A program made the position numbers and the translations under genes. Below, in pieces: positions 6,601-37,415 of a DNA stretch of 40,062 bases; within the stretch, counting starts at the first letter, position 1; each line of letters begins with the position of its first letter. The notes beneath the pieces are model-generated. The model saw only the letters and a list, made by a program, of their open reading frames with translations, was not told the DNA's origin and did not search any database. Source of the DNA: a virus (taxonomy: Duplodnaviria > Heunggongvirae > Uroviricota > Caudoviricetes); IMG/VR virus record IMGVR_UViG_2671180458_000005; one strand, written 5' to 3'.

Positions 6601-6855
6601 GGGGAAGCCGGACCTGAAGCCATCATGCCCCTGACCCGGGCAGCGGATGGTTCACTCGGCGTGCGTGCGGTGGGCAGTATGAACGGCAGTGCGGGTCTGG
6701 TGTATTCCCCGGTGTACCACATTGCCATTCAGAATGACGGCGCTAACGGGCAGATAGGGCCGGAAGCGGCGGGCACCCTTGTGCAACTGATTGACCAGCG
6801 GGTACAGGCGGTGATGTTATCCATGCGTCGTGACGGAGGAATGCTGAGTGGATGA
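3613..6855 (+). CDS. Tail tape measure protein
   Basis: 1080 aa; Ala/Gln-rich coiled-coil repeats, hydrophobic Gly-rich C-terminal segment; GGAGAAAGG RBS; position between chaperones and M. Confidence 0.85.
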   Translation: MATLRELIIKISANSQSFQSEIQRASRMGSEYYRTLQNGGRQAAAAAREQRRALAELNSQLTEIRASAVGMTGAFAGAFATGHLISLADEWSSVNARLKQASQSSDEFSSSQKVLMDISQRTGTAFSDNAALFARSAASMREYGYSADDVLKVTEAISTGLKISGASAAEAGSVITQFSQALAQGVLRGEEFNSVNESGDRIIRALAAGMGVARKDLKAMADDGQLTADKVVPALISQLGILRDEYAAMPETVSDGITKVENAFMAWVGGANEASGATKTLSGALNGVAGNIDTVATAAGVLVAVGVARYFGNLASGAMSATAGLVTAARNEVALAEAQLRGTQIATARARAAVYRAQQAVAAARGTEMQIAAEARLAVTQERLNRNIAARTAAQNALNSTTAVGSRLMSGALGLVGGVPGLVMLGAAAWYTLYQNQEQARESAHQYALTIDEIAHKTPSMSLPEASDNEGRTREALTEQNRLIDEQASRVKSLQEKIAGYQYVLANPGWTTGNGFMINHLTSVKTVTEGLAQATEQFAVEQSRLAQMQEKAQSIQDVLAGLEERRVVLIRQQAAEQNKAYQSLLIMNGQHTEFNRLLGLGNELLQQRQGLASVPLRLPQATLDDKQQGALNNTERQLALSRLKGEEKERARLGYAADDLGLVGDTYQEARQRYIRNSMEAWRNNEANKPKSRAGKSGAEKAEDSFSRLLKQQKEQLALAGKNTELAKLKYQTSQGELKTLTEIQKQELLRNAALIDQKKIREQLRAREETLKNDNADARASNDAELLGYGQGERVRERMRELQQIRDGYRQKDADLQSQYQTGDISEDFYRQALAQNAQYLSERLKDQEAFYAESDAQRADWQKGLQEGLSNWVDSASDYASQAAQLATDGISGMVNNITEMLNGNKVEWRSWAASILQEISKVLMNAAIVNGIKMAANSMSGAGGFFGSIGNWLGGAVANAKGGVYTSANLSAYSNSIVDTPTYFAFAKGAGLMGEAGPEAIMPLTRAADGSLGVRAVGSMNGSAGLVYSPVYHIAIQNDGANGQIGPEAAGTLVQLIDQRVQAVMLSMRRDGGMLSG

Positions 6856-7189
6856 GATTAAGACCCTTCACTGGTGTCCCCGGGAAGGGATGCAGGTGAC
6901 GGAGAAACCGTCGGTGGTGACGGTGAAGTTTGGCGACGGTTATCAGCAACGTCGTCCGGCAGGACTGAATGCGCAACTGAAGACCTTTCAGGTGGTTTTT
7001 CGGGTGACAACGGATGCTGAGCGGGAGGCACTGTCCGCGTTTCTGTCATGGCATGGTGGTTACCGGGCTTTTTTGTGGAAGCCCCCGAAACATAACCGGA
7101 CGGTCAGGGTGGTGTGCCGGGAGTGGAGTATTACGGATAACGCCCGGTACAGTGATTTCAGTTGTACGATAGAGCAGGTAGTTGGATGA
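6848..7189 (+). CDS. M: Minor tail protein M
   Basis: 113 aa; GTG start overlapping tape-measure stop; motif FGDGYQQRRPAGLNA...WHGGYRAFLWKPP matches lambda M as recalled. Confidence 0.85.
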   Translation: MDEIKTLHWCPREGMQVTEKPSVVTVKFGDGYQQRRPAGLNAQLKTFQVVFRVTTDAEREALSAFLSWHGGYRAFLWKPPKHNRTVRVVCREWSITDNARYSDFSCTIEQVVG

Positions 7190-7387
7190 GAATTATCCTA
7201 TAAATCACTCTTTATTGTTTAGTTGTTAATTATTTTTAATCTGTCTTGTCAGAAAGTGCGAAATCGATCTTGTATTTACATTTTGTTACATAATATAAAT
7301 TGAACTAAGAATTTGTATTAAAATATTTTAATTTTTGTTCATGACATCTAAATGCATGAATAGTTCAGTTTAAATAAGGATTAAATC

Positions 7388-8542
7388 ATGAAAAAAATGA
7401 CAGTGGCACTTTCTGCTGTAGCAGTGGCAGTGATGTTTGCTGCGGGGGCGCAGGCAGCAGAAGTTTATAATAAAGATGGTAATAAACTGGATCTTTACGG
7501 GCGTGCAACCGCTCTGCATTACTTCTCGGATGATAAAGGTAATGACGGAGACCAGACTTATGCTCGTCTCGGCTTTAAAGGCGAAACGCAGATTAATGAT
7601 CAACTGACCGGATTTGGTCAGTGGGAATACCAGTTCTCTGGTAACAAAACGGAATCTGAAGGTTCCGCGGGAAATAAAACCCGTCTGGCATTTGCAGGTC
7701 TGAGATTTGCAGATGTTGGTACCATTGATTACGGACGTAACTATGGTATTGCTTACGATGTCGGATCATATACTGACGTACTGCCTGAGTTTGGTGGTGA
7801 TGGCTGGACGCAGACCGATAACTTTATGACGGCCCGAACTTCCGGTGTCCTGACATACCGTAATACAGACTTCTTCGGACTGGTTGATGGTCTGAATTTT
7901 GCGGCGCAGTATCAGGGCAAAAATGAGCGTGATGACCTTCAGAAGGCTAATGGCGACGGGTATGGTTTCTCGGCCAGCTATGAGTTTGATGGTTTTGGTT
8001 TTGTCGCTGCGTATACCAAGTCAGATCGTACTGATAAGCAGGTTCAGGGGTTGAATGGTACTGCAGATGTTCTTGATCCTGCATCAGGTAAAAAGGTTGG
8101 AGAAAAAGCAGTTGACTCAGGTAGTGTGGCAAAAGGTAAACATGCTGAATTCTGGGGAACTGGTCTTAAATATGATGCCAATAACCTGTATCTGGCAGCA
8201 GTGTATTCTGAAACCCAGAATATGACGACCTTTGGTGATCAAGGTGTTGCGGATAAAGCTCAGAATATCGAAGCCGTTGTTCAGTATCAGTTTGATTTTG
8301 GTCTGCGCCCGTCCCTTGCCTACCTTCAGTCCCGCGGACAGGATGTTATGGTTGGTGGTGTGAACCATGGCGATCAGGATCTGGTTAAATATATTGATGT
8401 CGGTGCGACTTATTACTTTAACAAGAATATGTCCACCTATGTTGATTATAAAATTAACCTGATTGATGAAAGTGAATTTACCCGGAAAGCCGGTGTTGCG
8501 ACAGATAATATCGTTGCTGTGGGTATGACTTATCAGTTCTGA
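7388..8542 (+). CDS. OmpC/OmpF-family general porin (phage-borne moron)
   Basis: 384 aa; signal peptide ending AQA then [15 protein letters not shown]...; internal PEFGGD and [14 protein letters not shown] motifs and C-terminal ...VGMTYQF; AT-rich 200-bp upstream region; lies between M and L. Confidence 0.9.
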
Positions 8543-8715
8543 TTATTGCTGATAAGTTAATAAATACGGGCCGTCTGCCCTTACAGGCGGCCTGTATCAA
8601 TGAAAACACAGTTTTCATTGGTCACTGCGATCAGCAATTGCCATCTGGCATGTGCTGATTTAACTTTCTGTTATTACCTTTATTGGTTTTATTTTAAATT
8701 GGACTTTTATTGTTC

Positions 8716-8739
8716 GGGGCGCGTCTGCGCCCCTTTTTT
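8716..8739 (+). terminator. Rho-independent terminator downstream of porin gene
   Basis: GGGGCGC-GTCT-GCGCCCC followed by TTTTTT, 12 nt before L start. Confidence 0.7.
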
Positions 8740-8751
8740 ATGGGCGGATAT

Positions 8752-9450
8752 ATGCAGGATATTCACGAAGAAAGCCTGAACGAGTCGGTTAAGTCAGAGC
8801 AGTCACCGCGGGTGGTGCTCTGGGAAATCGACCTGACGGTGCAGGGCGGTGAGCGGTATTTTTTCTGCAATGAGCTGAATGAAAAAGGGGAGCCGGTGAC
8901 CTGGCAGGGGCGTGAATATCAGGCGTACCCGATTGAGGGCAGCGGCTTTGAGATGAACGGAAAGGGCAGCAGTGCCCGCCCGTCGCTGACGGTCTCCAAT
9001 CTTTTCGGCCTTGTCACCGGGATGGCGGAGGATTTGCAGAGCCTGGTGGGTGCCACGGTGGTCCGCCGCCGGGTGTATGCGCGTTTTCTGGATGCGGTGA
9101 ATTTTGTGGCGGGGAATCCGGAGGCCGACCCGGAGCAGGAGCTGACGGACCGGTGGGTGGTGGAGCAGATGTCAGCGCTGACGGCCATGACGGCCTCGTT
9201 TGTGCTGGCGACACCGACGGAGACGGACGGTGCGCTGTTTCCCGGTCGCATCATGCTGGCGAACACCTGTATGTGGGATTACCGGGGCGATGAATGCGGG
9301 TATAACGGTCCGGCAGTGGCGGATGAGTTCGACAACCCCACCACGGATATCCGGAAGGACAGATGCAGTAAATGCATGCGCGGGTGTGAGATGCGCGGCA
9401 TGGTGGCTAATTTCGGCGGTTTCCTTTCCATTAATAAACTTTCGCAGTAA
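8752..9450 (+). CDS. L: Minor tail protein L
   Basis: 232 aa from ATG 8752 (MQDIHEESL...), same length as lambda L; upstream in-frame extension overlaps the terminator and is rejected. Confidence 0.85.
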   Translation: MQDIHEESLNESVKSEQSPRVVLWEIDLTVQGGERYFFCNELNEKGEPVTWQGREYQAYPIEGSGFEMNGKGSSARPSLTVSNLFGLVTGMAEDLQSLVGATVVRRRVYARFLDAVNFVAGNPEADPEQELTDRWVVEQMSALTAMTASFVLATPTETDGALFPGRIMLANTCMWDYRGDECGYNGPAVADEFDNPTTDIRKDRCSKCMRGCEMRGMVANFGGFLSINKLSQ

Positions 9451-14831: not shown

Positions 14832-14972
14832 ATGTCGCAAAAACCGTTAAAAACCACCGTGATTTGTATCACGGTAGTGCTCATTATCTGGATCACCCAC
14901 ACTTCACTGTGCGAGTTCCGGTTCCGGATAGCGGGCGCGGAGATTGCGGCGTTCTTACAGTGTAAGCAGTAA
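14832..14972 (+). CDS. Hok/Gef-family type I toxin (small membrane peptide)
   Basis: 46 aa MSQKPLKTTVICITVVLIIWITHTSLCEFRFRIAGAEIAAFLQCKQ; N-terminal TM helix plus C-terminal LCE-RFR-G-E-AAF motif as in HokB; AAGGAG 8 nt upstream; not in supplied ORF track (under 60 aa). Confidence 0.75.
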   Translation: MSQKPLKTTVICITVVLIIWITHTSLCEFRFRIAGAEIAAFLQCKQ

Positions 14973-15114: not shown

Positions 15115-16515
15115 ATGACAGTCAGAATATCGGGTGTGCTGAAGGATGGTACGGGAAAAGCGGTACCGGGATGCACGATAGAGCTGAAAGCGCGCCGTAC
15201 AACGGAGACGGTGATTGTCACCACGGTGGCGTATGGTCAGCCGGGGGAAACCGGCAGTTACAGTATGGATGTTGAGCCCGGGTTATACCGGGTGACGCTG
15301 AACACGGAAGGGTACGCGCCGTCATATGTGGGTGACATTCTGGTGAAAGCGGATTCTGCACCGGGAACGCTGAATAAATTTCTGATGGACCTGGAAGACG
15401 CACCGTATTACCCGAAAGCCCTTGCAGAGCTGGAAGCGGTGGCAGCGGAAATCCTGAAACGTGCGGAAGCCTCCGCAGCCAGTGCGGAGGAGGCAAAAAA
15501 ACGGGCAGAGAATGCGCGGGGACCGAAGGGGGATAAGGGGGACACCGGGCCGCAGGGTATTCCCGGGCCAAAAGGCGATACCGGCGAGCGGGGGCCAAAG
15601 GGTGAGCGTGGTGAGACAGGACCACAGGGGCTTCAGGGTGTGAAAGGTGAACGGGGAGAGAAGGGCGAAAAAGGCGAGCCGGGAGGGCCGGATGCGACGA
15701 CGGCACAGAAGGGAATTGTGCAGTTAAGCAGCGCAACGGACAGTGATGATGAAACGAAGGCAGCCACCCTGAAAGCGGTGAAAGCGGCAATGGACAAAGC
15801 GGACGGATGCCTGGAGAAAGCGAAAAACGGTGACGATATCCCGGATAAGGTGAAGTTTCTGAACACCGTGGGAGCAGCCAGAGTATACGGGCGGGACATT
15901 CATACGGGGGCCGGTGAATGGACCACGAGTGAGTTTGTGGCCTGGCTGAAAGAAAAGGGGGCATTTGACCAGCCTTACTGGATGATGAAGGCATCACTGC
16001 TTGCGGAATTTAATAAGGTCATCACGGATGTCGGACCGGGAAAACTCAATCTGGGAGGCTGCGCCATTGAGGTGATGGGGACGTATAACGCAGCCATAGT
16101 CCGGGTCACCATCGGCGAATACGGTGGCGATGGTTTTCTGAACGGCACGGTCTGTACCTGTACAGTTTACGGAGACACACAACGTTTTCACTGGCGGGTG
16201 GATTACAGCACAAAAAACAAGCCCACAACAGCAAGCCTGACAGTAAATGGCTGGGAGCGTGATGAAGTAACCGGTCGTTTGCGGCAATGGGGCAGTATTG
16301 AGGTAAGTGAGGATGATGGTAAGCTTATGACACAACACTCTATCCGTTTTCCTGTCGCTTTTCCGGTTGCTGCTCTGAATGCTCAGGTGTCTGCAGTGGG
16401 AGACCCCAACGTCATTAAGATGTATACCCTGTCGAATCCGTCATTAGTGTCTGTGACTCTGATAACAGTCAGGGGATGCTACGGCAAGTTTTCATGGGAA
16501 GCGATCGGATACTGA
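15115..16515 (+). CDS. stf: Side tail fiber protein with collagen-like Gly-X-Y repeats
   Basis: N-terminus [28 protein letters not shown] matches lambda Stf N-terminus as recalled; [37 protein letters not shown] repeats; [10 protein letters not shown] motif. Confidence 0.85.
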
Positions 16516-16524
16516 GGGCATTGT

Positions 16525-16749
16525 ATGGAACAGTATGTTTTTTCACCGTCAGAGAATATGTTTTATCCCCTGTCCCTGCGGCCGGTTTATGAGGCAGCAG
16601 GGCGCTGGCCGGAAGACGGTATTGTGGTGGATTATGTGGTGTATAAAGTCTTTGCAGCGGATGCTGCACCGGCAGGTATGAAGCGGGGCGTCGGTGCGGA
16701 AAAAATGCCGGTCTGGGTGCCGGTATCGGAGGAGGGCACGGAAACATGA
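16525..16749 (+). CDS. Hypothetical small protein between stf and tfa (possibly tail fiber assembly-related)
   Basis: 74 aa ORF, ATGA overlap with following gene; no confident family recognition. Confidence 0.4.
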   Translation: MEQYVFSPSENMFYPLSLRPVYEAAGRWPEDGIVVDYVVYKVFAADAAPAGMKRGVGAEKMPVWVPVSEEGTET

Positions 16750-17414
16750 TGCATATCAGAAATTTTTCGTATTACACCCCGGCAGAGCCGGATGTTGCAG
16801 GCGCGATGTACCTGAAGTCTGAGGATGGTCAGGACTGGTATGAGTGTCAGGCGTTGTTTTCGCCGGAGACGCTGAAGGTGGTGTATGACAGCCGGGGTGT
16901 GATTACGGGATACGGTAAGGACACTGCGTTACTGTGGCCGGTGAACCAGAGTGTGGCAGAAGTGCCGGATACCCCGGAGAGCCGGAAAATTGACCTGAGC
17001 GGGCGCTGGGGCTTTGACGGGGAGAAAATCACGGACCTGCTGACCGCGGAGAAAGCGCGAGGGATGAAGGGCGATGAAATAAACGCGTGGCGTAATGCGA
17101 TGGAAGCGGCGAACTACACGTTTGAGCACAATGGGCGTAAATGGGACTACGGGAAGTCAACGCAGACGCGTCTTGAGCCGTCGGTGGCTGCAGCGAAAGC
17201 GGGGAAACTGCCGGAGGCGTTTTTCTGGACGGATGCGGAAAACAATGATGTGCCGGTGACAGCAGAAGAGCTTATAGCGCTGAGTGAAGCGGCAGAGCAG
17301 GCGATGTTCACTAAAGGGATGGAAATCCACATTCGCCAGCGCACCATGAAGAAGGAGCTGGAAAAGCTGACCAGTGCGGATGAGATACTGGCATACAGGG
17401 TGGACTGGAAATAA
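16746..17414 (+). CDS. tfa: Tail fiber assembly protein (Tfa family)
   Basis: 222 aa; N-terminal pattern (SEDGQDWYE...VVYDSRGVITG...AEVPD...GRWGFDG) resembles E. coli prophage Tfa proteins as recalled; position after stf. Confidence 0.65.
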   Translation: MMHIRNFSYYTPAEPDVAGAMYLKSEDGQDWYECQALFSPETLKVVYDSRGVITGYGKDTALLWPVNQSVAEVPDTPESRKIDLSGRWGFDGEKITDLLTAEKARGMKGDEINAWRNAMEAANYTFEHNGRKWDYGKSTQTRLEPSVAAAKAGKLPEAFFWTDAENNDVPVTAEELIALSEAAEQAMFTKGMEIHIRQRTMKKELEKLTSADEILAYRVDWK

Positions 17415-17905: not shown

Positions 17906-19177
17906 ATGAACAAAAAATTCTCTAAGACTATTCTTTCTTCTGTTGTTGCCGGACTGTTGCTGGTAAGTAGTGGGGGTGTTGCAAAAGAGATTGATATTGG
18001 TGGTAAATATAAAGTTATTCTGACAGAGGAAACAGGTTCGGCAAGGATTGTGGATATAAATACTAAAAAAGATTTATTTGATGGAATTATTAATGCGAAA
18101 ACAGGCACTGTTACTACTGTAAACAAAAAAGAGATTCAATCTGCTATAGATAGTTTTTATGCCGCTAACCCAAAAATAAATAAAGATGATCCAAACATTA
18201 AACAGATGGTGGCTCAGGCTGCTGGTAATTCGGGGCGTTATACAGTCTCTTTACCCAGTGGGCTCCCTTCGTTAACGACTGAAAATATTTTCAATCTAAA
18301 AGTGACTGATATTGAAAAAATAAAATCTAATATTGATGGTGTTAATTCAGTTATCACCAGTAAAACTGCAAAAGATTACAATATTGCTATCAGTAACGGC
18401 ATGAGTTCAGAAGCTGCGCTAACAGCGGCTAAAGATGGTAATGGAGCGCTGTTACAGGAATTCAACCGTCTCGGCACAAATGTAAATGACCTGAAAAATG
18501 CCACTACATTTGCTCTTGATGAAAATGGTGAAATTACCTATGAAAAAGGAGTGGAAAGCATTCCTGTTAAGGATGTGGTTGCAGAGGTAAAAGCCGATAC
18601 AACAATTCGTAAGAACAAAGATGGCAGCTATACCCTGGATCAGACCGCGCCTGATACTGTTCGTGTGAACGCTGCAATTGTTGATCTGGATAAAAATCTG
18701 AAAGACAGAACCACTGTTGGCGTGAATTCAGACGGCAGCCTGACCACTGCTGAAGGAGCCACAAAAACTGTTGCGGTAAGTGAAGGCCTTGTTTCCCTGT
18801 CGGGAAGAACTGGCCGTATTGATGCTGCGGTTGGTGGCATTGACACCCGTGTCACCAAAAACACTCAGACTATCCAGAATCACTCCCGCCAGCTGCAGGA
18901 GCATAACGCGCGGCTGAACAGTCAGCAGCGTCAGATTCGTGAAAACCACGAAGAAATGAAACGTGCTGCTGCACAGAGTGCGGCACTGGCAGGTTTGTTC
19001 CAGCCGTACAGTGTGGGTAAATTCAACGCCACGGCAGCACTGGGTGGTTACAGTGACAAACAGGCTATGGCCGTTGGTGTGGGTTACCGCTTTAACGAGC
19101 AGACAGCAGCCAAAGCAGGTATTGCAGCCAGCGACGGTGATGTATCCTACAACGTTGGTGTGAACTTCGAGTTTTAA
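17906..19177 (+). CDS. Trimeric autotransporter adhesin with YadA-like C-terminal anchor (Eib-like family)
   Basis: 423 aa; N-terminal signal peptide; coiled-coil stretch ([42 protein letters not shown]); C-terminal beta-barrel anchor ending NVGVNFEF; low-GC, AT-rich upstream region. Confidence 0.65.
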
Positions 19178-20683: not shown

Positions 20684-21709
20684 TTACTTGGAATATTTTG
20701 TTGGAATATTCTGGGGTAATGGTACATCCAGTGTGGGTGAGATCTTTACTTTTCTATCATAGATTAGCACCTGTCCTTCGGTCTTGTGACCAGAGAAAAG
20801 TTGCTTATCCCGGCTACTACCTTCGTAATCTGATATCCCCTTGGCTTTAAGGTCATGGAATGTAAAATCCGTCGCGATCCCTGATATTTGTCCAGCCAAA
20901 TTTCTTGCCTCAACCCACATTTCATTAAATCCTTTATACATGTAACGGTTGCCGTACTGATTGCTGATTACATAGGCTGACTTGGGTAGCTGTTTAGCTT
21001 TTTCTATAACTGATTGCAGACGGGGAGTCCAGGCTTTTATCTGTTTCTTTCCTGTTTTACCTTGCTGGATAAAGATCCCGTCGTTTCCGATCTGTTCCCA
21101 TTTCAGAGACAACACATCGGAAATCCTTGCTGCGCACAGGTATGCAATTTCCATTGCGATAAAAACAGGCACAGGAGCCACGCTTAATACGGCCTGGTAT
21201 TCTTTGTCAGTCACATAGCGCTCTCGGTTTTTGGCCTTGAATTTACTTACACCGGCACAAGGATTAGCCTTTACATACCCTCGTTCATACCCCCAACTGT
21301 AAACGCGTGACATGCTGCTTTTTTCATGGTTTGCCTGCGTTTTACTCTGCTCGCCCCTTTTGTCCATGTATCGTCTGATGTGCTCTGGTTTTACAGAATC
21401 GGCCAGCACCTTACCGAATACGGCCAGCAGTTTTTTTTGATGTTGCAGATAATCTTTTTGCGTTCTGGGACTAAGATCGCTGTAATAGGCGCTGGCGAGA
21501 AATTTTTCCCACAAACGCCCAAATGTCATTGCGTGATCATGATGGTTAACCGTTTCTTCATATTTTTTCCATAATGCGGCTAAACCATCCTTGATTGCAG
21601 TTAAGGTTACAGATTCTCTGGATGTTGGTTTCCATACATAACTATATTTATTGGGATATACCTTTGGCGGTAATTTTTCGTGTTCGGGATTTTTCCTTCG
21701 TCTTCCCAT
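20684..21709 (-). CDS. int: Tyrosine site-specific integrase
   Basis: 341 aa; position next to att core and upstream xis; Arg/His/Tyr-containing C-terminal region typical of phage integrases. Confidence 0.85.
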   Translation of the reverse strand: MGRRRKNPEHEKLPPKVYPNKYSYVWKPTSRESVTLTAIKDGLAALWKKYEETVNHHDHAMTFGRLWEKFLASAYYSDLSPRTQKDYLQHQKKLLAVFGKVLADSVKPEHIRRYMDKRGEQSKTQANHEKSSMSRVYSWGYERGYVKANPCAGVSKFKAKNRERYVTDKEYQAVLSVAPVPVFIAMEIAYLCAARISDVLSLKWEQIGNDGIFIQQGKTGKKQIKAWTPRLQSVIEKAKQLPKSAYVISNQYGNRYMYKGFNEMWVEARNLAGQISGIATDFTFHDLKAKGISDYEGSSRDKQLFSGHKTEGQVLIYDRKVKISPTLDVPLPQNIPTKYSK

Positions 21710-21970: not shown

Positions 21971-24415
21971 TTAAAAATCAGCCTGATTTGGGAACAGTTT
22001 TTGCCAGATAGCTGAAACGTATTTTGCCTGGTAACGCGCATCGTGCAGGGCATTATGGCGTTCACCCTCAAATGTGGTGACGTTGCGGGCATCGAAATCC
22101 ATCACCAACCCCAGAGCGACCATCGTTCTTACATCGCGATCATTGGTGTAACGCCACGGGCAGGGGATCTCCTGCCGTTCATATGAACGGCGTAAAATCA
22201 CGTTGTCGAAGTTGGCTCCATTTCCCCAGACCTGAACAAAAAACTCACCGGAGTTTTCGTCTATAAATTCCCGTAATTGTAAAAGCGCATCATCAAGCGG
22301 TATTCGATCAGCTAAAATGGCGGCACGGGCTTCGCCAGAGCGTTGAAGCCACCATTCGATGGTGCTTATGTCTACAGTGCCGCCACATGTACCCATATCA
22401 ATTATTTTGCTGAATTCAGGCCCCTGCTCTCCGGTTTGTGGATCGAAAAATACAGCGCCTATTGAGGCTATTGGTGCGTCAGGATTTTTGCCCATTGTTT
22501 CAAGGTCAATCATCAGATGGTGCCACAACCTGCTGGTGGATGTGATTTCACGATGACCGTTCACCTTAATTAAGAGATTTGCTGTCTCGCCTGTTTCATT
22601 ATTGCCATTGGCATGTTGATCGCCTTCGGTGCACTCCTTGTTCGGGAGTCCGGCACTTTCCATTTCCTCCGGATCTTTTTCCCGGGCTTCATCCTGGCTT
22701 TCTTCGTTGAATGTCTCCTGGTATGTTGCGTCGCCCATCACCGCGCCACAGTCAGGACAGTTGCCGCCGCCGGTCTGACCGCAGGCTGTGCAGACTTTTT
22801 CCGGTTCCTGTTGCGCTACTGGTTCAGGCTGTTTCGTTTCTGGCTCGTTTTGTTGCGCATTTGGACTGTGTTGTTCCGCTTTATGGCCTTTCTGTTCCGT
22901 TTCTTGCTGGTTATGGTTCACAGAATCGCGGGTTTCAATCCCCTTCACCCATTTTGGATCATTCGGGTCGCTAATCCCTTCAACAAATTCTCCGTGAGAA
23001 GCAGCCAGTAATTTATCTGCATCGACAGGATTTTTGGGTGGAATGTTTTTCCTGGCTTCATAGAGTTCTGCACGCAGTTTCTGATATTTCGCATCAACAG
23101 AATTTATCTGTGGCTGAGCATTCATCGACTGCGTGTCCTGATTATGTTCAGTTGTATCCGGTTCCACTGCTTCAGTCGTTGCCTGTTCATCTGCCATTGC
23201 GCCAGATGGCTGCGGTTTTTCTTCATCATCCTGTTTTCCTTCTTTTGTTACACGCTGCGGCATTGGAGCAGAGGAGCGACCGCAGGCAATATCCACGATT
23301 TCTGGATCAGGGTTGGCATGGTCGGTTTCGGTCAGTACTTTGTTCAGATATTCGGTAACACGGTGGGGAGTAGCCTCGATACCAATTGGTGCTTCTTTCA
23401 CGGACGCAACCACTATCGCGCGGGAATAATCCAGGTGACCAGGCATGGCGATGAATTTGTCACGAAAAACAGAAAAGGGCGGCTTATTCTCTGAAACGAT
23501 TTCTTCAATGCGTTTGGCGTGTGCCGGATGTGGATTGTAAATATCGATGTCCATTGAACGGGCCAGAACGCCAGCGGCAACGTCACGTTCCACTGACGCA
23601 TCATCGTGGACAAAACCTTCACCGCGATCGGTAAGAATTCCTCCGCCAGCATTAGCGCCGGATGGCGTGCGGCTGATGCGTAAAGCACGATTTCCTTTCA
23701 TCCACTCTTTTGTCAGCAGACCTCGATCGGTATAGTCAGCGTCCAGGTATGCTTCGAAAAAAGCAGTCATTAACCCCAGACTGGAATTAACGGGATTAGG
23801 GAAAACTTTGTCTGTGTCGCGTACCAGTTTGTGAAGGTCGCGAATCTCCAGCGGGTCGAGCAGCTTTGTGTTGTGGGAAATAGCCAGGGCAGTAACAGCA
23901 GGCAGTTCTTCAGCTCGTGCGATATGTAATGCCTGAAGTTCTTCCCGTGAAACGTGCGTTACCGGTTTTTCGCTGCCATGTTGCGCAAGCCAGCGAATGG
24001 GCAGTTCCTGACCGGAAATCGGCAGGAGCATATTATCCTCAATCTCAGCCATGTCTTCGCCATTGACGTTGGTATTGTCAGTGCTGGCTGGTTTGTCCTG
24101 AACTGAGGGGGAAGGCGCTATAAATATCATTGTGATGCCATCTTCTCCGCCTTTTTCATAGCGGTTGCAGAATTCGGTATCAAACACACCTTCAGGCGGC
24201 AGGTCATTAACAATGGGCAAATTCACGCGAACAGGTTTTTTGAAATCCTCTTCGTCAAATCCAGCATCGTCCATTGCGACAACACCCCGTGATATTGCAA
24301 CCGATAATTTTTTTGCTGTGCGCCAGTAAAAACCGCCTTTAATCCCAAGGCGTTTTCTGACTTTGTCATTTTTGGCTTCGTAATACAGTGCAATTTCTTC
24401 TTTATCAGTGCTCAT
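21971..24415 (-). CDS. Large exonuclease with C-terminal DnaQ-like DEDDh 3-5 exonuclease domain and central zinc-ribbon motif
   Basis: 814 aa; C-terminus has MIDLETMG (Exo I-like) and [15 protein letters not shown] (Exo III-like) motifs; [16 protein letters not shown] Cys4 motif; acidic linker; N-terminal part resembles prophage proteins annotated exodeoxyribonuclease VIII (recalled). Confidence 0.7.
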
Positions 24416-31483: not shown

Positions 31484-31666
31484 ATGCGAAAGTTCAAAAT
31501 AATTATTGAAACGGGAATAGCCGGTGGAGATTTTGAGGATGTATTCGAAGTGGACGATGACGCAACACCTGATGAAATTCATGACGAAGCAAAAGAAATT
31601 TTCTTTAACTACTGCAATTACTCATATCACGAAATAAAAGACGAAGAGGAAGAACAAAATGGCTGA
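31484..31666 (+). CDS. Small highly acidic protein (hypothetical)
   Basis: 60 aa, about one third Asp/Glu; stop overlaps start of next small ORF (ATGGCTGA). Confidence 0.5.
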   Translation: MRKFKIIIETGIAGGDFEDVFEVDDDATPDEIHDEAKEIFFNYCNYSYHEIKDEEEEQNG

Positions 31667-31835
31667 TTTTGGTTCAACTAAATACAACGTCAGTTTTGAA
31701 GAATGGCATGAACTGTTAATGGACTATGCAGAGTTACGTGGTGGCAGTGCTGCTGATGCTGAAGCATGGCGTGATGATTATGAAGCAGGAAAAACTCCGG
31801 TCGAAGCATATTGTGATGAGTGGGGCGATGAATGA
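31659..31835 (+). CDS. Small acidic protein (hypothetical)
   Basis: 58 aa MADFGSTKYNVSFEEWHELLMDYAELRGGSAADAEAWRDDYEAGKTPVEAYCDEWGDE; overlaps both neighbours by 4-8 nt; not in ORF track. Confidence 0.5.
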   Translation: MADFGSTKYNVSFEEWHELLMDYAELRGGSAADAEAWRDDYEAGKTPVEAYCDEWGDE

Positions 31836-32347
31836 GCGAGATTAATTATCAGGAAGGGCATGAAACGGCAGGGCAGGCAAAACCAGTTGCATGGCGATAT
31901 CGCTACGTGAAAAAAGACGTTACAGACTTTCAGGGGAAGCCGTGGGCTGGTGACTGGAAATATGTACCGACAAAAGAGGATTGTAACGACAGGCCGAACT
32001 ATGAAATTCAGGCCTTATTCATCGGCCCGCCAGTCCCGGTGACATCAGAAGGACTGGTTAAAGCTGTGCGCTTTTATGAACAGGTAAAGCGTGAGAATCC
32101 GCCAGTCGAAACAGGAGCATGGAAGGATGCTGTTGACTGGGTGCTCAGAGAGGCCTGCTGTGCTGCCATTCTGGGTAAAGCCGACAATCCACCAGCATCC
32201 GGCAATCAGGTTAGCGAATTAGCAATGTGGGTTAAACGGCTGGTCAGCCAACTGAAAAAAGCGAAGCCGGACTGCAAATTACCGGATAAGGCGATGGACT
32301 ACCTGAAGCGAAACGGACTGATAAACGAGGAGGATATTTTACGATGA
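31832..32347 (+). CDS. Hypothetical protein
   Basis: 171 aa; ATGA overlap with upstream ORF; a truncated copy of its first codons lies at 31323..31372. Confidence 0.55.
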   Translation: MSEINYQEGHETAGQAKPVAWRYRYVKKDVTDFQGKPWAGDWKYVPTKEDCNDRPNYEIQALFIGPPVPVTSEGLVKAVRFYEQVKRENPPVETGAWKDAVDWVLREACCAAILGKADNPPASGNQVSELAMWVKRLVSQLKKAKPDCKLPDKAMDYLKRNGLINEEDILR

Positions 32348-32427
32348 CCTGGCCTGAAGCGTTCATAACGGTAGGAATTGCAATGGCGGTGGCGCTGGTG
32401 GTGTATTCGATTTGCCGCTGGGGATAA
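32344..32427 (+). CDS. Putative 27-aa hydrophobic membrane peptide
   Basis: MTWPEAFITVGIAMAVALVVYSICRWG; ATGA overlap with upstream gene; followed by hairpin. Confidence 0.3.
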   Translation: MTWPEAFITVGIAMAVALVVYSICRWG

Positions 32428-32439
32428 ATTGCCGAAAAA

Positions 32440-32476
32440 AGATCCCGCCACAAACATGAGCCGGGATCTTTGATTT
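32440..32476 (+). terminator. Possible intrinsic terminator
   Basis: AGATCCCG...CGGGATCT stem with 14-nt loop followed by T-rich tract. Confidence 0.4.
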
Positions 32477-32549
32477 ATATAGCCTACGAATCCGCAGTAA
32501 GAGAGGGGCAGACGGTTTATTCTAACACCGGAATGATGTGGGTAAAAGT

Positions 32550-32849
32550 TTATAAGAAATCGGTTTCATAACTTTGCCCACCATGATAGATACCGACAAT
32601 AAAGACTTTTCTGCCATCAACGGCAAAAGCAATAATCGTTCTGTGGCGGAAATGAGTTACCCGCATCCCCTGGCGAATATCATCGCGTTTATTGCCCCGA
32701 TGCGGGAATGTAGAAAACCCATCAAGATAATCAAGAAGCGCATTGGCATAATTGTCAGCAATGACGTTCCCTGCTTTCTCCGTTATATATCTGTGCAGGT
32801 TGATTATTTGTTGTTCGGCCTCAGGAGTAATGATGACTTCATATGTCAT
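32550..32849 (-). CDS. parE: ParE-family type II toxin
   Basis: 99 aa; immediately downstream of ParD-like gene on same strand. Confidence 0.7.
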   Translation of the reverse strand: MTYEVIITPEAEQQIINLHRYITEKAGNVIADNYANALLDYLDGFSTFPHRGNKRDDIRQGMRVTHFRHRTIIAFAVDGRKVFIVGIYHGGQSYETDFL

Positions 32850-32854
32850 GCAGA

Positions 32855-33112
32855 TTACTTCCCGGATCGAATCGCGGCGCGAACCTGTGAAATGGAGCGT
32901 CCGTTGTTTGGGTTTTCGCGGATAGAATCAAGAGAGGGGGCGGCTGAATGCGTTAACCACGCTTCGATTGCTTTATCGCGCTCATTCAGTGCGCGAAGCC
33001 CTTCACGAATGACCTCGCTTTCTGAAGCATAGGCACCGGAAGCCACACGGGCGCGCACCATGTCAGCCATCTCGTTAGTTAATGTAATGCTGAATTGTTG
33101 GGTTGTACGCAT
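32855..33112 (-). CDS. parD: ParD-family (RHH) antitoxin
   Basis: Start at ATG 33112 (MRTTQQFSITLTNEMADMVRARV...), GAGG upstream. Confidence 0.65.
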   Translation of the reverse strand: MRTTQQFSITLTNEMADMVRARVASGAYASESEVIREGLRALNERDKAIEAWLTHSAAPSLDSIRENPNNGRSISQVRAAIRSGK

Positions 33113-33247
33113 GGTAAACCTCACGGAGTAGGATAGAACACTATTCGATGATAGCACGCTGCCTGTTGACGACAACAGAAATCAGAGACAATATTGCCGC
33201 ACGCCAGCCTGAACAACTGGCACCTGCTGCGCCAGCAGAGACAACCG

Positions 33248-33526
33248 ATGGCGCAAGATACCAAATTACACAATTCGGATAACTCCGCCGCCCCTGCCAG
33301 CAGGCACGGGCGGCGTTCTCATGCATTCAAATCTGACTGGTTCCAGCATGACCCATGCACTGAAGAACAGGCCGAATGGCTGATCCAGTGCTACCGCAGA
33401 CGTGGTTACGAGTTTCAGAAAGATCTCAGCTTCGATCGTCGTCACTGGATAATCTCCGTCAGGCTCCCTTATTCCGAACGCCCACCGCGTCCGTCCCGCA
33501 CATTCCAGCAGCGTATCTGGAGGTAA
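33248..33526 (+). CDS. Hypothetical protein
   Basis: ORF ends 1 nt before the GTG start of the next gene; start uncertain (TTG 33194 or ATG 33248). Confidence 0.35.
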   Translation: MAQDTKLHNSDNSAAPASRHGRRSHAFKSDWFQHDPCTEEQAEWLIQCYRRRGYEFQKDLSFDRRHWIISVRLPYSERPPRPSRTFQQRIWR

Positions 33527-33527
33527 C

Positions 33528-34577
33528 GTGCGGGTATTACTTCGACCTGTTCTGGTACCGGAACTCGGGATGGTGCTCCTTAAGCCGGGCCGTGAATCAA
33601 TGTCAGCATTCCATAACGGCAGAATATTGGTGGAGCCGGAACCGAAAAACATGCGCGGTCTGCCGTCCGGAGTCGTTCCTGCCGTTCGCCAGCCGCTGGC
33701 AGAGGATAAAACATTACTGCCATTTTTCAGCGATGAGCGGGTTATTCGTGCAGCAGGTGGTGCAGGTGCACTGTCTGACTGGTTATTACGTCACGTGAAA
33801 TCCTGCCAGTGGCCACACGGCGATTATCATCACAGCGAAACCGTCATTCACCGTTACGGTACCGGCGCGATGGTGTTGTGCTGGCACTGTGACAACCAGC
33901 TGCGCGACCAGACATCAGAATCACTCGATCAACTTGCTCAGCAGAATCTGGCAGTCTGGATGATTGATGTTATACGTCACGCAATAAGCGGTACGCAGGA
34001 GAGGGAGTTATCGCTGGCCGAATTATCCTGGTGGGCGGCCTGCAATCAGGTGGTGGATGCACTACCTGAGGCAGTAGCGCGTCGTTCGCTGGGATTACCG
34101 GTGGAAAAAATCCGCTCCGTATACCGTGAGAGTGACATCGTACCGGGAGAACAGACAGCCATCAGCATACTGAAGCAGCGCACAAAAAATATTGCGCTGC
34201 CACTTCACGTCCACCAGCAACAAAATCCACCACAGAAAAAAACGGTTGTCAGTATCGCCGTTGATCCGGAGTCTCCTGAATCGTTTATGAAGCGGCCTAA
34301 ACATCGCCGTTGGGTTAATGAGAAATACACGCGCTGGGTAAAGACACAGCCGTGTGCGTGTTGTGGTAAGCCAGCTGACGATCCGCATCACCTGATTGGT
34401 CATGGTCAGGGGGGAATGGGAACAAAAGCCCACGATATTTTCACGCTACCGCTGTGTCGGGAGCATCATAACGAGCTTCATGCGGATCCGCTGGCGTTCG
34501 AAGAAAAGCATGGTTCTCAGGTTGATTTAATTTTTCGTTTTCTTGATCACGCCTTTGCAACCGGTGTGCTTGGGTAA
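33528..34577 (+). CDS. YdfU-like protein with C-terminal Cys/His HNH-like motif (DUF968-like)
   Basis: 349 aa; GTG start behind GGAGG; C-terminal CACCGKPADDPHHLIGHGQGG...LCREHHNELHADP. Confidence 0.55.
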   Translation: MRVLLRPVLVPELGMVLLKPGRESMSAFHNGRILVEPEPKNMRGLPSGVVPAVRQPLAEDKTLLPFFSDERVIRAAGGAGALSDWLLRHVKSCQWPHGDYHHSETVIHRYGTGAMVLCWHCDNQLRDQTSESLDQLAQQNLAVWMIDVIRHAISGTQERELSLAELSWWAACNQVVDALPEAVARRSLGLPVEKIRSVYRESDIVPGEQTAISILKQRTKNIALPLHVHQQQNPPQKKTVVSIAVDPESPESFMKRPKHRRWVNEKYTRWVKTQPCACCGKPADDPHHLIGHGQGGMGTKAHDIFTLPLCREHHNELHADPLAFEEKHGSQVDLIFRFLDHAFATGVLG

Positions 34578-34590
34578 AAGGGGGGTATTG

Positions 34591-34965
34591 ATGTGTATAG
34601 AGTTTGTTTTGCCTTACCCGCCGACGGTGAATACTTACTGGCGACGTCGTGGCAGCACATATTTTGTATCAAAAGCCGGGGAGCGTTATCGCCGGGCAGT
34701 GGCGTTTATTGTTCGCCAGCAGCGACTGAAATTAAGCCTGTCCGGACGGCTGGCAATAAAAATTATTGCAGAGCCACCGGATAAGCGTCGTCGTGACCTG
34801 GACAACATTCTGAAAGCACCGCTGGATGCGCTGACGCATGCGGGACTGCTTATCGACGATGAACAGTTTGATGAAATCAATATTGTACGTGGTCAGCCAG
34901 TATCTGGTGGACGTCTGGGGGTGAAGATTTACCCCATAATGCTTGAAGGGCAGGTCAAAAAATGA
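34591..34965 (+). CDS. rusA: Holliday junction resolvase RusA
   Basis: LPYPPTVNTYWRRRG and DKRRRDLDNILKAPLDALTHAGLLIDDEQ motifs; start ATG 34591 behind AAAAGGGGGG. Confidence 0.8.
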   Translation: MCIEFVLPYPPTVNTYWRRRGSTYFVSKAGERYRRAVAFIVRQQRLKLSLSGRLAIKIIAEPPDKRRRDLDNILKAPLDALTHAGLLIDDEQFDEINIVRGQPVSGGRLGVKIYPIMLEGQVKK

Positions 34966-35783
34966 AACTGGAAGATTTACCGAAATACTACTCCCCAAAA
35001 TCCCCCGGCCTGACTGATGCATCGGCCTCAACGTCAAAAGATGCGCTGAGTATCACTGATGTGATGGCCGCGCAGGGCATGACACAGAATCGGGCTGAGA
35101 TGGGGTTTTCTGCGTTCCTTGGGAAAATGGGCATTAGTATGAATGACAGAGAGCGGGCAACAGAATTGCTGACAGAATATGCACTCAGTCGGTGTGATCG
35201 CGTGGCGGCGTTAAGAAAACTCCCGGCAGAAATAAAACCGGCAGTGATGCGTATTATGGCTTCGTATGCGTTTGAAGATTATGCCCGTAGCGCGGCGAGC
35301 AAAAAACAGTGCCCCTGCTGTCACGGAAAAAAATTTATTGAAAGCGAGGTTTTTACAAACAAGATCCAGTATCCGGATGGTAAGCCGCCAGTGTGGGCAA
35401 AGTGCACAAAAGGCGTGTATCCGTCTTACTGGGAGGAATGGAAAAAAGTCAGGGAGGTGGTAAAAGTTGCCTGTCCGGAGTGTGGCGGAAAGGGGGAGGT
35501 TTCCACCGCCTGTAAAGATTGTCGTGGGCGCGGTGTTGCCATTCATCGTGAAGAGTCGGAAAAACAGGGTGTGCCGGTTTTCAGAAACTGCCAGCGTTGT
35601 GGTGGGCGTGGCTATGAAAGATTACCTTCAACGGAGGCATTTAATGCCATATGTAATGTAACCGATGCCATATCTCTTGATACATGGAAAAAAACAGTTA
35701 AACGTTTTTACGATACGCTGGTGGTGCAGTTTGATATTGAAGAAGCATGGGCAGAACAACAACTGAAAAAGGTGACCAGATAG
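34962..35783 (+). CDS. Late-gene antitermination protein Q (multi-zinc-finger type)
   Basis: 273 aa with several CxxC pairs; ATGA overlap with rusA; followed by late promoter-like region and terminator. Confidence 0.65.
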   Translation: MKLEDLPKYYSPKSPGLTDASASTSKDALSITDVMAAQGMTQNRAEMGFSAFLGKMGISMNDRERATELLTEYALSRCDRVAALRKLPAEIKPAVMRIMASYAFEDYARSAASKKQCPCCHGKKFIESEVFTNKIQYPDGKPPVWAKCTKGVYPSYWEEWKKVREVVKVACPECGGKGEVSTACKDCRGRGVAIHREESEKQGVPVFRNCQRCGGRGYERLPSTEAFNAICNVTDAISLDTWKKTVKRFYDTLVVQFDIEEAWAEQQLKKVTR

Positions 35784-35863
35784 CTTTGTTGATTTTTCCC
35801 GAATCTGTGGTAAATTTGCCCTAACGATGGGCGTTTTATGCCTGACGTTAGAAGATTTTTACA

Positions 35864-35886
35864 CCCGTCGCCAGGCGGGTTTTTTT
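35864..35886 (+). terminator. Rho-independent terminator downstream of Q (tR-prime analogue)
   Basis: CCCGTC-GCCA-GGCGGG followed by TTTTTTT about 80 nt after Q stop. Confidence 0.6.
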
Positions 35887-36008
35887 ATGACTGAAATCAC
35901 GCCAGTACAGTAAACGCGCTGGTGGCGGTGAATACCGGTCTTTCAGCTTGCTGGCTTTTTTGACAAGAGTTATTGGTGTGTCACGTTAACCGGAAAAGGG
36001 AAAAAGAC

Positions 36009-36206
36009 ATGCTGATACAGCAGGATATGACCGAAACCGCCAGAGTGGTGTTTAATGAATTAAGCGTCACCGAACCGGCGACAGTCGGGGAGATTGCGCA
36101 GAATACTTACCTTTCACGCGAACGCTGCCAGTTAATACTGACCCAGCTTGTTATGGCGGGTCTGGCAGACTATCAGTTCGGTTGTTACAGACGCCTTCAG
36201 TCATGA
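36009..36206 (+). CDS. Small winged-helix DNA-binding protein (hypothetical)
   Basis: 65 aa from ATG 36009; segment VGEIAQNTYLSRERCQLILTQLVMAGLADY looks wHTH-like. Confidence 0.4.
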   Translation: MLIQQDMTETARVVFNELSVTEPATVGEIAQNTYLSRERCQLILTQLVMAGLADYQFGCYRRLQS

Positions 36207-36356
36207 AGGCTTTTTTATTTGTGGTAAATGGGCGGCTGGTGGGTGTTAGGGGCACTCACCAGCCATCTGCTCATGCGTCTGGATCACAAGCAAACCTCAG
36301 GCCCACTGCTTTGCGCAAAAGCAGAATGAGCCTATCAGAGACAGGCTTAATGATCC

Positions 36357-37415
36357 ATGCTTAACACTGTAAAAATATCCAGTTGTGAGTTAATCAACGC
36401 CGACTGCCTGGAATTTATCCGGTCGTTACCCGAAAATTCTGTTGACCTGATAGTCACGGATCCGCCGTACTTTAAAGTGAAGCCTGAGGGCTGGGATAAC
36501 CAGTGGAAGGGCGACGATGATTACCTGAAGTGGCTGGACCAGTGTCTGGCGCAGTTCTGGCGGGTGCTGAAACCTGCCGGAAGTCTTTACCTGTTCTGTG
36601 GCCATCGCCTGGCATCTGATATCGAAATCATGATGCGTGAACGCTTCAGTGTGCTGAACCATATTATCTGGGCAAAGCCGTCCGGACGCTGGAACGGGTG
36701 CAACAAGGAAAGCCTGAGGGCGTATTTCCCCGCCACAGAGCGCATTCTGTTCGCGGAACATTATCAGGGGCCGTATCGTCCGAAAGATGCCGGGTATGAG
36801 GCGAAGGGCAGGGCACTGAAACAGCATGTGATGGCTCCGCTGATTGCTTACTTTCGTGATGCGCGTGCTGCCCTGGGGATAACGGCAAAACAGATAGTGG
36901 ATGCCACAGGAAAGAAAAACATGGTGTCGCACTGGTTCAGTGCCAGTCAGTGGCAACTGCCGAACGAAAGTGATTATCTGAAATTACAGGCGCTGTTTGC
37001 CCGGGTGGCAGAAGAGAAGCATCAGCGGGGTGAACTGGAGAAGCCCCACCACCAGCTGCTGGAGACGTATACTTCACTGAACCGGCAGTATGCGGAACTG
37101 CAGAGTGAATATAAGCATCTGCGGCGGTATTTTGGCGTGACGGCGCAGGTGCCGTACACCGATGTGTGGACGCATAAACCGGTGCAGTACTATCCCGGGA
37201 AACATCCGTGCGAAAAACCGGCAGAAATGCTGCAGCAGATAATCAGCGCGAGCAGTCGTCCGGGGGACCTGGTTGCAGATTTTTTCATGGGGTCGGGTTC
37301 GACAGTCAAAGCCGCGATGGCACTGGGGCGTCGTGCAACTGGTGTTGAGCTGGAGACTGAACGTTTTGAGCAGACGGTCAGGGAAGTTCAGGATTTAGCC
37401 AGTCAGAACGGATGA
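36357..37415 (+). CDS. DNA methyltransferase (N6-adenine/N4-cytosine type, no cognate endonuclease seen)
   Basis: 352 aa; motif IV LIVTDPPY near N-terminus and motif I FMGSGST near C-terminus. Confidence 0.85.
   Translation: MLNTVKISSCELINADCLEFIRSLPENSVDLIVTDPPYFKVKPEGWDNQWKGDDDYLKWLDQCLAQFWRVLKPAGSLYLFCGHRLASDIEIMMRERFSVLNHIIWAKPSGRWNGCNKESLRAYFPATERILFAEHYQGPYRPKDAGYEAKGRALKQHVMAPLIAYFRDARAALGITAKQIVDATGKKNMVSHWFSASQWQLPNESDYLKLQALFARVAEEKHQRGELEKPHHQLLETYTSLNRQYAELQSEYKHLRRYFGVTAQVPYTDVWTHKPVQYYPGKHPCEKPAEMLQQIISASSRPGDLVADFFMGSGSTVKAAMALGRRATGVELETERFEQTVREVQDLASQNG

Follow-up and report, generated by a model that had tools for sequence, protein, structure and literature searches.

The stretch of DNA analysed here, 40,062 nucleotides (nt) of the Caudoviricetes record IMGVR_UViG_2671180458_000005 and hereafter called the window, carries between its minor tail genes M and L an AT-rich insert with an intact porin gene that is kept by selection, followed by a conserved, structured 3' untranslated region (UTR) which is homologous to ipeX of the PA-2 lc and DLP12 nmpC porin loci, is complementary to the leaders of ompC and ompF, and ends in a terminator. 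In our judgement, this insert is probably a self-contained cassette for lysogenic conversion by a 'porin swap', in which a regulatory region would direct expression of the phage porin while an RNA acting against OmpC and OmpF would repress the porins of the host. An earlier reading of the same DNA, the original prediction, had proposed a complete porin moron with its own regulatory region and terminator, comparable to the Lc protein of phage PA-2; this core is supported by our analysis and strengthened by the IpeX-like nature of the 3' UTR. Judged by comparison of sequences, two elements appear to be new, a conserved OmpR-type box upstream of the porin and the IpeX-homologous 3' UTR with a seed resembling that of MicC, the newest of all being this seed, which seems common to both families of such UTRs.

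The borders of the insert can be read from related phages that lack it. As M and L overlap directly in TGATG, with no DNA between them, both in the Stx2 phage Stx2a_1447, which has its M side in common with the window, and in phage 1720a-02, the insert comprises positions 7190-8752, 1563 bp that fill exactly the gap from the stop codon of M to the start codon of L and agree within 1 nt with the 7190-8751 proposed originally. Phage 1720a-02 is 97-99% identical to the window on the L-J side, and this similarity starts at 8752. The empty site in these phages, together with the family matches of M (Phage_min_tail) on the left and L (TIGR01600) on the right, confirms the location at the M-L junction, and the comparison of base composition with the flanking tail genes that had been suggested points the same way: the tail genes have a GC content of 0.57-0.65, whereas it is 0.31 over the 200 bp ahead of the porin and 0.41-0.49 for the porin gene and what follows it. 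In terms of the moron definition of Juhala and Hendrix (as cited in PMC4104026), the insert is extra DNA between normally adjacent genes, deviates in composition and possesses its own terminator; as to a promoter of its own, the region shows an OmpR-type box and conserved -35/-10-like blocks, and a scan made no call on the plus strand. The cassette thus resembles the classical lambdoid morons lom, bor and stx in being extra DNA of differing composition with its own terminator and an outer-membrane product. Unlike these, however, it splits a translationally coupled gene pair within the tail assembly operon, puts a strong terminator 13 nt ahead of a tail gene that is essential, and joins a protein to a putative regulatory RNA. 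Its right end, ATGGGCGGATAT, probably supplies the ribosome-binding site for L, whose coupling to M is lost.

What kind of porin does the cassette encode? The 384-residue product matches Pfam PF00267 (Porin_1) with an E-value of 5.9e-144, residues 29-384 covering profile positions 1-337 of 337, and its alignment with the solved chains of OmpC, OmpK36, PhoE and OmpF runs from end to end (E 1e-131 to 1e-118, ~65% identity). The signal peptide ends in AQA and the mature protein starts with AEVYNK, the loop-3 motif PEFGGD occupies residues 133-138, and the C-terminus reads YQF; the AQA/AEVYNK context, PEFGGD and the terminal YQF are retained in 19-109 relatives. The description as a complete porin of 384 residues with a signal peptide is therefore borne out by the full-length Porin_1 match and the cleavage context, while its assignment to the OmpC family holds in one sense only. 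The protein belongs to the family and passes the cutoff of the NCBIfam subfamily model NF007841, 'porin OmpC' (507.7 bits, cutoff 484), with the equivalog models for PhoE and OmpF remaining under their cutoffs, but it is not an OmpC orthologue. The proposed comparison with OmpC, OmpD, NmpC and Lc yields 71-73% identity to NmpC, Lc and OmpD, against 64.5% to K-12 OmpC, 62.9% to OmpN and 62.3% to OmpF, and in a tree the porins of the M/L site form a separate clade that is sister to NmpC, Lc and OmpD. As they form a clade of their own nearer to these three, 'OmpC' is a pipeline name here and not a statement of orthology; the separate clade, the 64.5% identity and a location in a prophage tail operon instead of the ompC-micF locus together rule out orthology. 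In family, length, signal peptide, PEFGGD and C-terminal Phe, the cassette porin is like the chromosomal OmpC, OmpF and PhoE of E. coli and OmpD of Salmonella; it differs from the chromosomal general porins in being prophage-borne, in its 62-65% identity to OmpC, OmpF and OmpN, and in flanking non-coding DNA that is unrelated to that of any chromosomal porin locus. Its lineage is prophage-specific, since no chromosomal porin among one genome each for 185,579 species is more than 68% identical to it.

The ratio of nonsynonymous to synonymous substitution rates (dN/dS) between variants is 0.05-0.17 while dS reaches 1.1-1.4, and the M/L porin lineage is therefore old and under strong purifying selection. 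A hypervariable external loop at residues ~219-246 departs from this pattern, with indels of 0-30 residues among variants and a dN/dS of 0.33-0.38 versus 0.03-0.05 for the rest of the gene; between the window and locus L013, dS is 0.98 within the loop and 0.11 outside. The loop looks as if it had been exchanged by recombination. We base the fold assignment on sequence homology to solved porins and not on structure prediction: two AlphaFold2 models reached a mean predicted local distance difference test score (pLDDT) of 56 and 68, with values below 50 in the N-terminal third because the alignments contained only close relatives, and in Foldseek searches with these low-pLDDT models OmpC, OmpK36 and OmpF structures ranked first (E 6e-31, template modelling score 0.65-0.73). 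By homology, the product, in which barrel and constriction loop are conserved, would be a functional 16-strand general porin.

Downstream of the porin gene, the cassette is strongly structured. Over the 200 nt that follow the stop codon, the fold has -78.2 kcal/mol, a z-score of -8.7 relative to shuffles, and consists of three stem-loops, then a U-rich single strand of ~55 nt, then the terminator. When 11 variants are compared, 99% of the paired cells can pair and compensatory changes occur in 11 pairs, a result found in 0 of 500 shuffles, with slid controls giving at most 4. The strong terminator that had been noted just before L is there at 13 nt from its ATG, and every variant keeps its stem, two pairs of which have undergone compensatory changes. 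An open reading frame within this region, 8600-8779, is non-coding, as 13-nt and 1-nt indels in the variants break its frame. By BLAST, the 3' UTR occurs solely together with the cassette, and its best-conserved portion is the single-stranded stretch, not the hairpins.

The layout is that of IpeX, which is likewise bounded by the stop codon of a prophage porin and a Rho-independent terminator (here 8543-8739). Behind nmpC in the K-12 prophage DLP12 lies a region, present in identical form after lc of PA-2, with the same three-hairpin architecture and a z-score of -8.0. A covariance model, R1, built from ten UTRs of the M/L type plus that of locus L176 and yielding rough E-values, finds K-12 ipeX with 45.1 bits (E 4e-8) and the corresponding region of Perceval with 51.6 bits (E 1.6e-9), both over the full length, as well as ipeX of PA-2, and on chromosomal ompC, ompF, ompN-micC and other porin loci it returns nothing better than 0.011. 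Moreover, the motif TTCTGTTAT-N0-5-TACC-N0-1-TTTAT is present once per locus, ~115-125 nt after the porin stop codon, in 20 loci of the M/L type and ~50 of the nmpC/lc type, and in none of 79 chromosomal porin loci. Since R1 recovers the ipeX regions and the motif is common to both UTR families, the 3' UTR of the cassette is a homologue of IpeX. Rfam has no IpeX family, and searches of 6800-9000 and of the K-12 ipeX locus brought none of its families above threshold. The lc transcript, or IpeX, lowers OmpC and also OmpF (PMC12197685, PMC7177473), and a porin of the nmpC type is expressed ~10-fold above background in a lysogen of LF82 (PMC9928086), so porin morons can be active in lysogens.

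The cassette and the PA-2 lc and DLP12 nmpC-ipeX units thus share a porin of sister clades on a lambdoid prophage and a structured 3' UTR of ~165-200 nt, in which three hairpins are followed by an AU-rich stretch and a GC-rich terminator. They differ in position, as lc and nmpC lie between Q and S/R (in Perceval, DLP12 and PA-2) in the opposite orientation, whereas the cassette lies between M and L and is co-oriented with the late genes; in the porin, which at 71-73% identity to Lc and NmpC is a distinct sister lineage with a short external loop L4 and a long, variable L5; in the RNA, where the hairpin sequences are unrelated to those of ipeX and the spacer before the terminator is 28 nt longer; and in regulation, for which the PA-2 record annotates CRP sites and the cassette has an OmpR-type box. 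Most likely, then, the cassette represents a known kind of module, a prophage porin with an IpeX-type UTR, at a new site and with a different type of promoter. A further relative is found at locus L176 (3545-5101), outside any tail operon and next to a CdiI-like gene, where a porin 77% identical to ours retains the 3' UTR with stem-loops SL1 and SL2 and the terminator and has OmpR-like direct repeats, TTACAATTTGTTACAATTT, upstream; this may be a third genomic context of the unit of porin and UTR.

The conserved single strand contains a putative seed, UUUAACUUUCUGUUAUUACCUUUAUUGGUUUU, whose predicted pairing with the K-12 ompC leader from -37 to -4 amounts to -28.5 kcal/mol over 15+8 bp (23 bp). 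In the longer helix, UUAACUUUCUGUUAU pairs over 15 bp with AUAACAGAGGGUUAA of ompC, covering the Shine-Dalgarno sequence GAGGG; in the shorter, CCUUUAUU (8677-8684) pairs over 8 bp with AAUAAAGG. When the 65-nt U-rich stretch that contains the seed (8656-8720) is set against the ompC leader, none of 300 shuffles of each partner reaches the observed energy, and among 120,966 scanning windows from 609 kb of enterobacterial DNA the best non-self partners are the ompC leaders of K-12, Enterobacter and Lelliottia at -27.8, with the best unrelated site at -26.1. In 5359 of 5371 E. coli genomes, the K-12 ompC leader is matched with an identity of 99% or more. The invariant core of the seed, UUAUUACCUU, also matches GAGGGUAAUAA of ompF, and on cofolding, the UTR of the window and ompF give a free-energy difference (ddG) of -24.1 kcal/mol (0/60 shuffles), next to -27.1 (0/60) for MicC with ompC as the positive control and a non-significant -10.4 for MicC with ompF as the negative control; K-12 IpeX reaches -16.3 with ompC and -15.1 with ompF (0/60 each). 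Variants of the L003/L004 type differ at three positions of the motif and have gained a contiguous 13-bp match to ompF, AUGAGGGUAAUAA, through a U-to-C change from CCUUUAU to CCUUCAU.

The likeness to MicC is confined to this seed. The 5' end of MicC reads GUUAUAUGCCUUUAUUG...UUUUAUUUU and the cassette seed GUUAU-UACCUUUAUUG followed by UUUUAUUUU; GUUAU-UACCUUUAUUGGUUUUAUUUU of the cassette and the MicC seed are predicted to pair with the same ompC site, and both seeds are genetically linked to a porin gene, MicC being a repressor of ompC that is encoded on the chromosome next to ompN. The seed of the cassette, however, is located inside a 3' UTR and not at the 5' end of a free-standing small RNA, and its pairing reaches over the Shine-Dalgarno sequence and fits ompF too, which MicC does not. 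Homology to MicC over the full length is not supported, as only the seed is similar (15/17 positions), the alignment stands at 25/1000, and R1 misses the micC locus L175 at E<1. The element may thus work like MicC without being a member of its family. Within the cassette itself, GAUGAUAAAGGUAAUGACGGAGA in the porin gene (7510-7545, plus strand, codons ~43-50) is among the stronger partners of the seed at -25.1 kcal/mol, and the 3' UTR cofolds with the 5' UTR of the cassette at -18.2 kcal/mol (0/60) via a different AU-rich segment, the seed alone giving -11.5; by these predictions, self-regulation or a cis interaction is possible.

How might the cassette be transcribed? The AT-rich region of ~200 bp described upstream of the porin is present, with 31% GC over 7190-7387, yet the promoter-like hexamers attributed to it were not recovered in canonical form: a simple, thresholded sigma-70 promoter scan of 7190-7387 made no call on the plus strand. 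What stands in their place is an OmpR-type box and weak, conserved -35 and -10 elements. The 20-mer TTTACATTTTGTTACATAAT agrees at 17/20 positions with TTTACTTTTGGTTACATATT upstream of K-12 ompF and at 15/20 with TTTACATTTTGAAACATCTA upstream of K-12 ompC, which we take to be the high-affinity OmpR sites F1 and C1, respectively. It is the sole match of this type in the window (0/100 shuffles), and when the AT-rich 198 bp were shuffled 20000 times, 14 shuffles gave an equally good match. In 15 diverged upstream variants, the retained blocks are AAAGTG, TTTACATT, ATTGAA, AATATTTT, GTTCATGACA, TGAATAGTTCAGTT and the Shine-Dalgarno sequence AAGGA; TTTACATT of the OmpR-type box is invariant, as are ATTGAA and AATATTTT at the candidate core promoter. 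The box abuts the weak -35-like TTGAAC, and a position abutting the -35 element is one from which OmpR activates transcription; TAAAAT at 7319-7324 is an alternative -10. By its OmpR-type box the cassette resembles the upstream regions of OmpC and OmpF, and these similarities point to control by OmpR. The upstream region is found in 93 E. coli genomes, always together with the porin. An origin of the flanks from chromosomal ompC, ompF or nmpC, or from a repeat or an element like an insertion sequence, was rejected, as BLAST finds both non-coding flanks only with the cassette. Upstream similarity to PA-2 lc was not found, blastn matches to phage porin genes spanning the coding sequence only (query 199-1355), and a by-eye resemblance to the CRP site of lc around 7250-7272 is poor.

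Of 5426 complete E. coli genomes, 109 (~2%) carry the cassette and 92 show the M-porin-L arrangement; among the carrier records listed, many are named Shiga toxin-producing E. coli (STEC) or were isolated from people, and others come from cattle, pigs, deer, mice and healthy humans. The cassette is absent from the M/L site of all 50,697 deposited phage genomes, and 30 contigs in IMG/VR have a porin that is 84-100% identical. The order M-porin-L is found in all 33 loci with both flanks readable, across which the identity of M falls from 99% to 48% and that of L to ~53-62%; in a 34th, L033, the contig begins at the porin, and only the L side can be checked. A Citrobacter farmeri contig has the same arrangement. 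The virion genes around the cassette are of two unrelated kinds: the prophage of a mouse strain has a lambda-type head and tail module (D, E, FI, U, G, T), and the window has an HK97-type module. We found no description of the M/L porin in the literature, including searches with its protein accessions. The prophage of strain STEC435 (L001) is otherwise near-identical and integrated at ompW; downstream of its tail fibres, at 31512-37680, it encodes a protein with a YadA C-terminal domain and a 1330-residue serine protease autotransporter of the S6 family (SPATE-type).

Does the phage itself use a porin as receptor, as the original prediction considered from the non-lambda C-terminus of J? For the window, the comparison favours neither answer: this C-terminus shares 98.8% identity with that of 1720a-02, 54% with lambda J and ~50% with J of phage 434, and its tip is equidistant from the structures of the LamB-bound lambda J and the OmpC-bound A8 gpJ (309 vs 307 bits). 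A8 gpJ carries the J tip of a natural prophage, and the receptor of this tip is OmpC (PMC11338833). In three other cassette prophages, from STEC435, a pig strain and a mouse strain, the J tips are clearly nearer to the OmpC-binding type, with 361-425 bits against 301-308 for lambda J. As their tips are closer to the OmpC-binding one, a logic like that of PA-2 is plausible for relatives of this phage: OmpC would serve the phage as receptor and be removed by its lysogen. A tie between the cassette and one receptor type of J was rejected, the J tips of those prophages being only 66-68% identical to that of the window.

What, then, would the cassette do in a lysogen? The OmpR box 5' of the weak core promoter would make transcription from the prophage dependent on EnvZ/OmpR, as for the porin genes of the host, and the phage porin would be exported to the outer membrane. 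The UTR, within the porin mRNA or after processing, would be shielded by its three protective stem-loops, and its seed would pair across the Shine-Dalgarno regions of ompC and ompF; their complementarity to the seed is found here, and their repression would follow by analogy with published work on IpeX and Lc. The lysogen would thus swap OmpC and OmpF for the phage porin, keeping solute uptake while the receptors of many phages and colicins are removed or changed, and the net result would be superinfection exclusion without the cost of porin loss. The terminator would halt this transcript before L; during lytic growth, polymerase modified by Q would read through it, and therefore, if lambdoid biology applies, the tail genes L to J would still be made.

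Several points weigh against this reading. The action of IpeX on ompC is reportedly independent of Hfq. The promoter scan made no call on the coding strand, a region of 31% GC could be silenced by H-NS, and our search of the literature turned up no published expression data for the cassette. As to the pairing, most shuffle controls preserved mononucleotide composition only, extrapolation from the 609 kb predicts a few chance sites of equal strength in each genome, and the cofolding of the UTR of the window with ompC, at a ddG of -15.8 kcal/mol, is only moderately better than shuffles (2/60). Variants of the L003/L004 type lose much of their ompC complementarity, which for L004 is not significant next to -26.3 for ompF. 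Lastly, reviews describe IpeX as having no complementarity to ompC and as acting possibly in an indirect manner (PMC10690425, PMC12197685); K-12 IpeX, however, is predicted to pair over 15 bp of AACCUUCUGUUAUAU with AUAUAACAGAGGGUU of ompC, and our analysis therefore conflicts with this statement.

Such an indirect route would suit a moron in which the protein alone confers fitness, through permeability for bile or antibiotics or through a new surface, with UTR hairpins that only stabilise and terminate the mRNA; OmpC and OmpF would then drop via competition for the β-barrel assembly machinery (BAM) or via envelope-stress feedback, and not via base pairing. The strong purifying selection on the protein and its fast-evolving surface loop agree with this, as do the accounts of IpeX in the reviews cited above, and stable 3' hairpins are common stabilisers of mRNA. 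However, it is the single-stranded stretch and not the hairpins that is most conserved in the UTR, the same motif is kept behind a porin lineage of ~72% identity even though the hairpin sequences differ, and this motif matches the ribosome-binding regions of ompC and ompF and the seed of MicC, so that we regard an effect of the porin alone as unlikely. A role mainly in the lytic cycle, where late transcription antiterminated by Q would flood the cell with porin mRNA and UTR and take receptors off cells about to lyse, such that progeny is not lost on debris (compare Llp of T5), has in its favour that the cassette is co-oriented with M and L, unlike nmpC and lc, that Q is present in the window, and that the J tips of the three other cassette prophages resemble the OmpC-dependent gpJ (PMC11338833). 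Yet a purely late function needs neither a dedicated OmpR-type regulatory region nor a strong terminator before L, porins are long-lived, so late repression would remove few receptors, and the J of the window itself is no nearer to the OmpC-binding type than to lambda J; we hold this role to be quite improbable. Least convincing of all, and in our view highly improbable, is a horizontally acquired porin gene that is silent or decaying cargo with no present role. The AT-rich upstream region, the scan with no promoter call and a literature search that turned up no published expression data would be in line with it, but the reading frame is intact in more than 100 genomes with a dN/dS of 0.05-0.17 at saturating dS, the non-coding flanks are conserved with compensatory changes, and the cassette has been kept across two virion modules and in Citrobacter.

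The porin swap, in our view the best account of the cassette, can be carried one step further. The IpeX-type RNAs of the cassette and of nmpC/lc might be phage-borne mimics of MicC that pair directly over the Shine-Dalgarno regions of ompC and ompF with seeds tuned by lineage, and thus form a portable swap module; we advance this tentatively, as a proposal that falls a little short of being probable. If it holds, the seed of the window type would fit both ompC and ompF, that of L003/L004 would fit ompF best by its 13-bp match, and the module would have moved at least twice in lambdoid genomes, to the Q-S and M-L sites, coming under OmpR control in the latter.

Table. Positions of the cassette, its parts and its flanking genes in the window, and of J tips in other cassette prophages
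Feature	Position	Strand	Basis and remarks
Minor tail gene M, left flank, outside cassette	6848..7189	+	Pfam Phage_min_tail 3.2e-33; stop TGA 7187-7189
Regulatory region and 5' UTR, AT-rich (31% GC)	7190..7387	+	Composition; conserved blocks in 15 variants
OmpR-box-like 20-mer TTTACATTTTGTTACATAAT	7275..7294	+	17/20 to presumed ompF F1, 15/20 to presumed ompC C1
Candidate weak core promoter	7300..7329	+	-35 TTGAAC 7300-7305, 18-nt spacer, -10 TATTTT 7324-7329
Porin coding sequence, 384 aa	7388..8542	+	Family matches; signal peptide encoded 7388-7456
Hypervariable external loop, residues ~219-246	8042..8125	+	Alignment to 2J1N, 3UPG: OmpC loop L5
Structured 3' UTR, IpeX-like RNA	8543..8740	+	Folding, covariation, covariance model
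Stem-loops of 3' UTR	SL1 8564-8597, SL2 8598-8620, SL3 8629-8660	+	Followed by ~55-nt U-rich single strand and terminator
Conserved single-stranded putative seed UUUAACUUUCUGUUAUUACCUUUAUUGGUUUU	8659..8690	+	MicC-like; complementary to ompC, ompF translation initiation regions
Intrinsic terminator GGGGCGC-GTCT-GCGCCCC + T6	8716..8739	+	7-bp all-GC stem, 4-nt loop; 13 nt before L ATG
Cassette right end ATGGGCGGATAT	8740..8752	+	Kept in all variants
Minor tail gene L, right flank, outside cassette	8753..9450	+	TIGR01600 1.9e-114; Pfam Phage_tail_L
J tips nearer A8 gpJ (PDB 9wca/9wcb)	L001 27282-28181; L172 15975-16874; L173 15692-16591		Bit scores

The window amounts to about a whole lambdoid genome, with an integrase (20684-21709, minus strand), an exonuclease VIII-like gene (21971-24415, minus strand), Q (34962-35783), a DNA methylase (36357-37415), tRNA-Met(CAT)/Arg/Arg (37456-37707) and a TerB-family gene (37877-38308); behind the tRNAs, where stx usually lies, no such gene is seen. 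Its early region is 98-99% identical to that of a prophage at the tRNA-Ser site of other strains, annotated with RelE/ParE toxin-antitoxin pairs and dicB. Directly after J lies a Hok/Gef-like open reading frame of 46 residues (14832-14972, plus strand), and the same position is annotated as Hok/Gef in STEC435 and the mouse strain 8178. The plus strand encodes at 17906-19177, past the genes for the side tail fibre (15115-16515) and for a DUF4376 protein (16746-17414), a protein of 423 residues with a YadA-like membrane anchor that resembles trimeric autotransporters of the Eib type, a second outer-membrane moron in this genome.

Nutrients and many antibiotics enter the cell chiefly through porins, which also serve many phages and colicins as receptors. 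If our reading is correct, the cassette would rewire the set of displayed porins in ~2% of complete E. coli genomes, altering susceptibility to phages, with consequences for phage therapy and for delivery vectors targeted to OmpC (PMC11338833), and affecting antibiotic permeability and surface antigenicity. If the seed is functional, IpeX would gain a conventional base-pairing mechanism, where reviews describe none. Finally, a module of protein plus small RNA would be able to sit in an essential, translationally coupled tail operon, relying on antitermination by Q for the viability of the phage.

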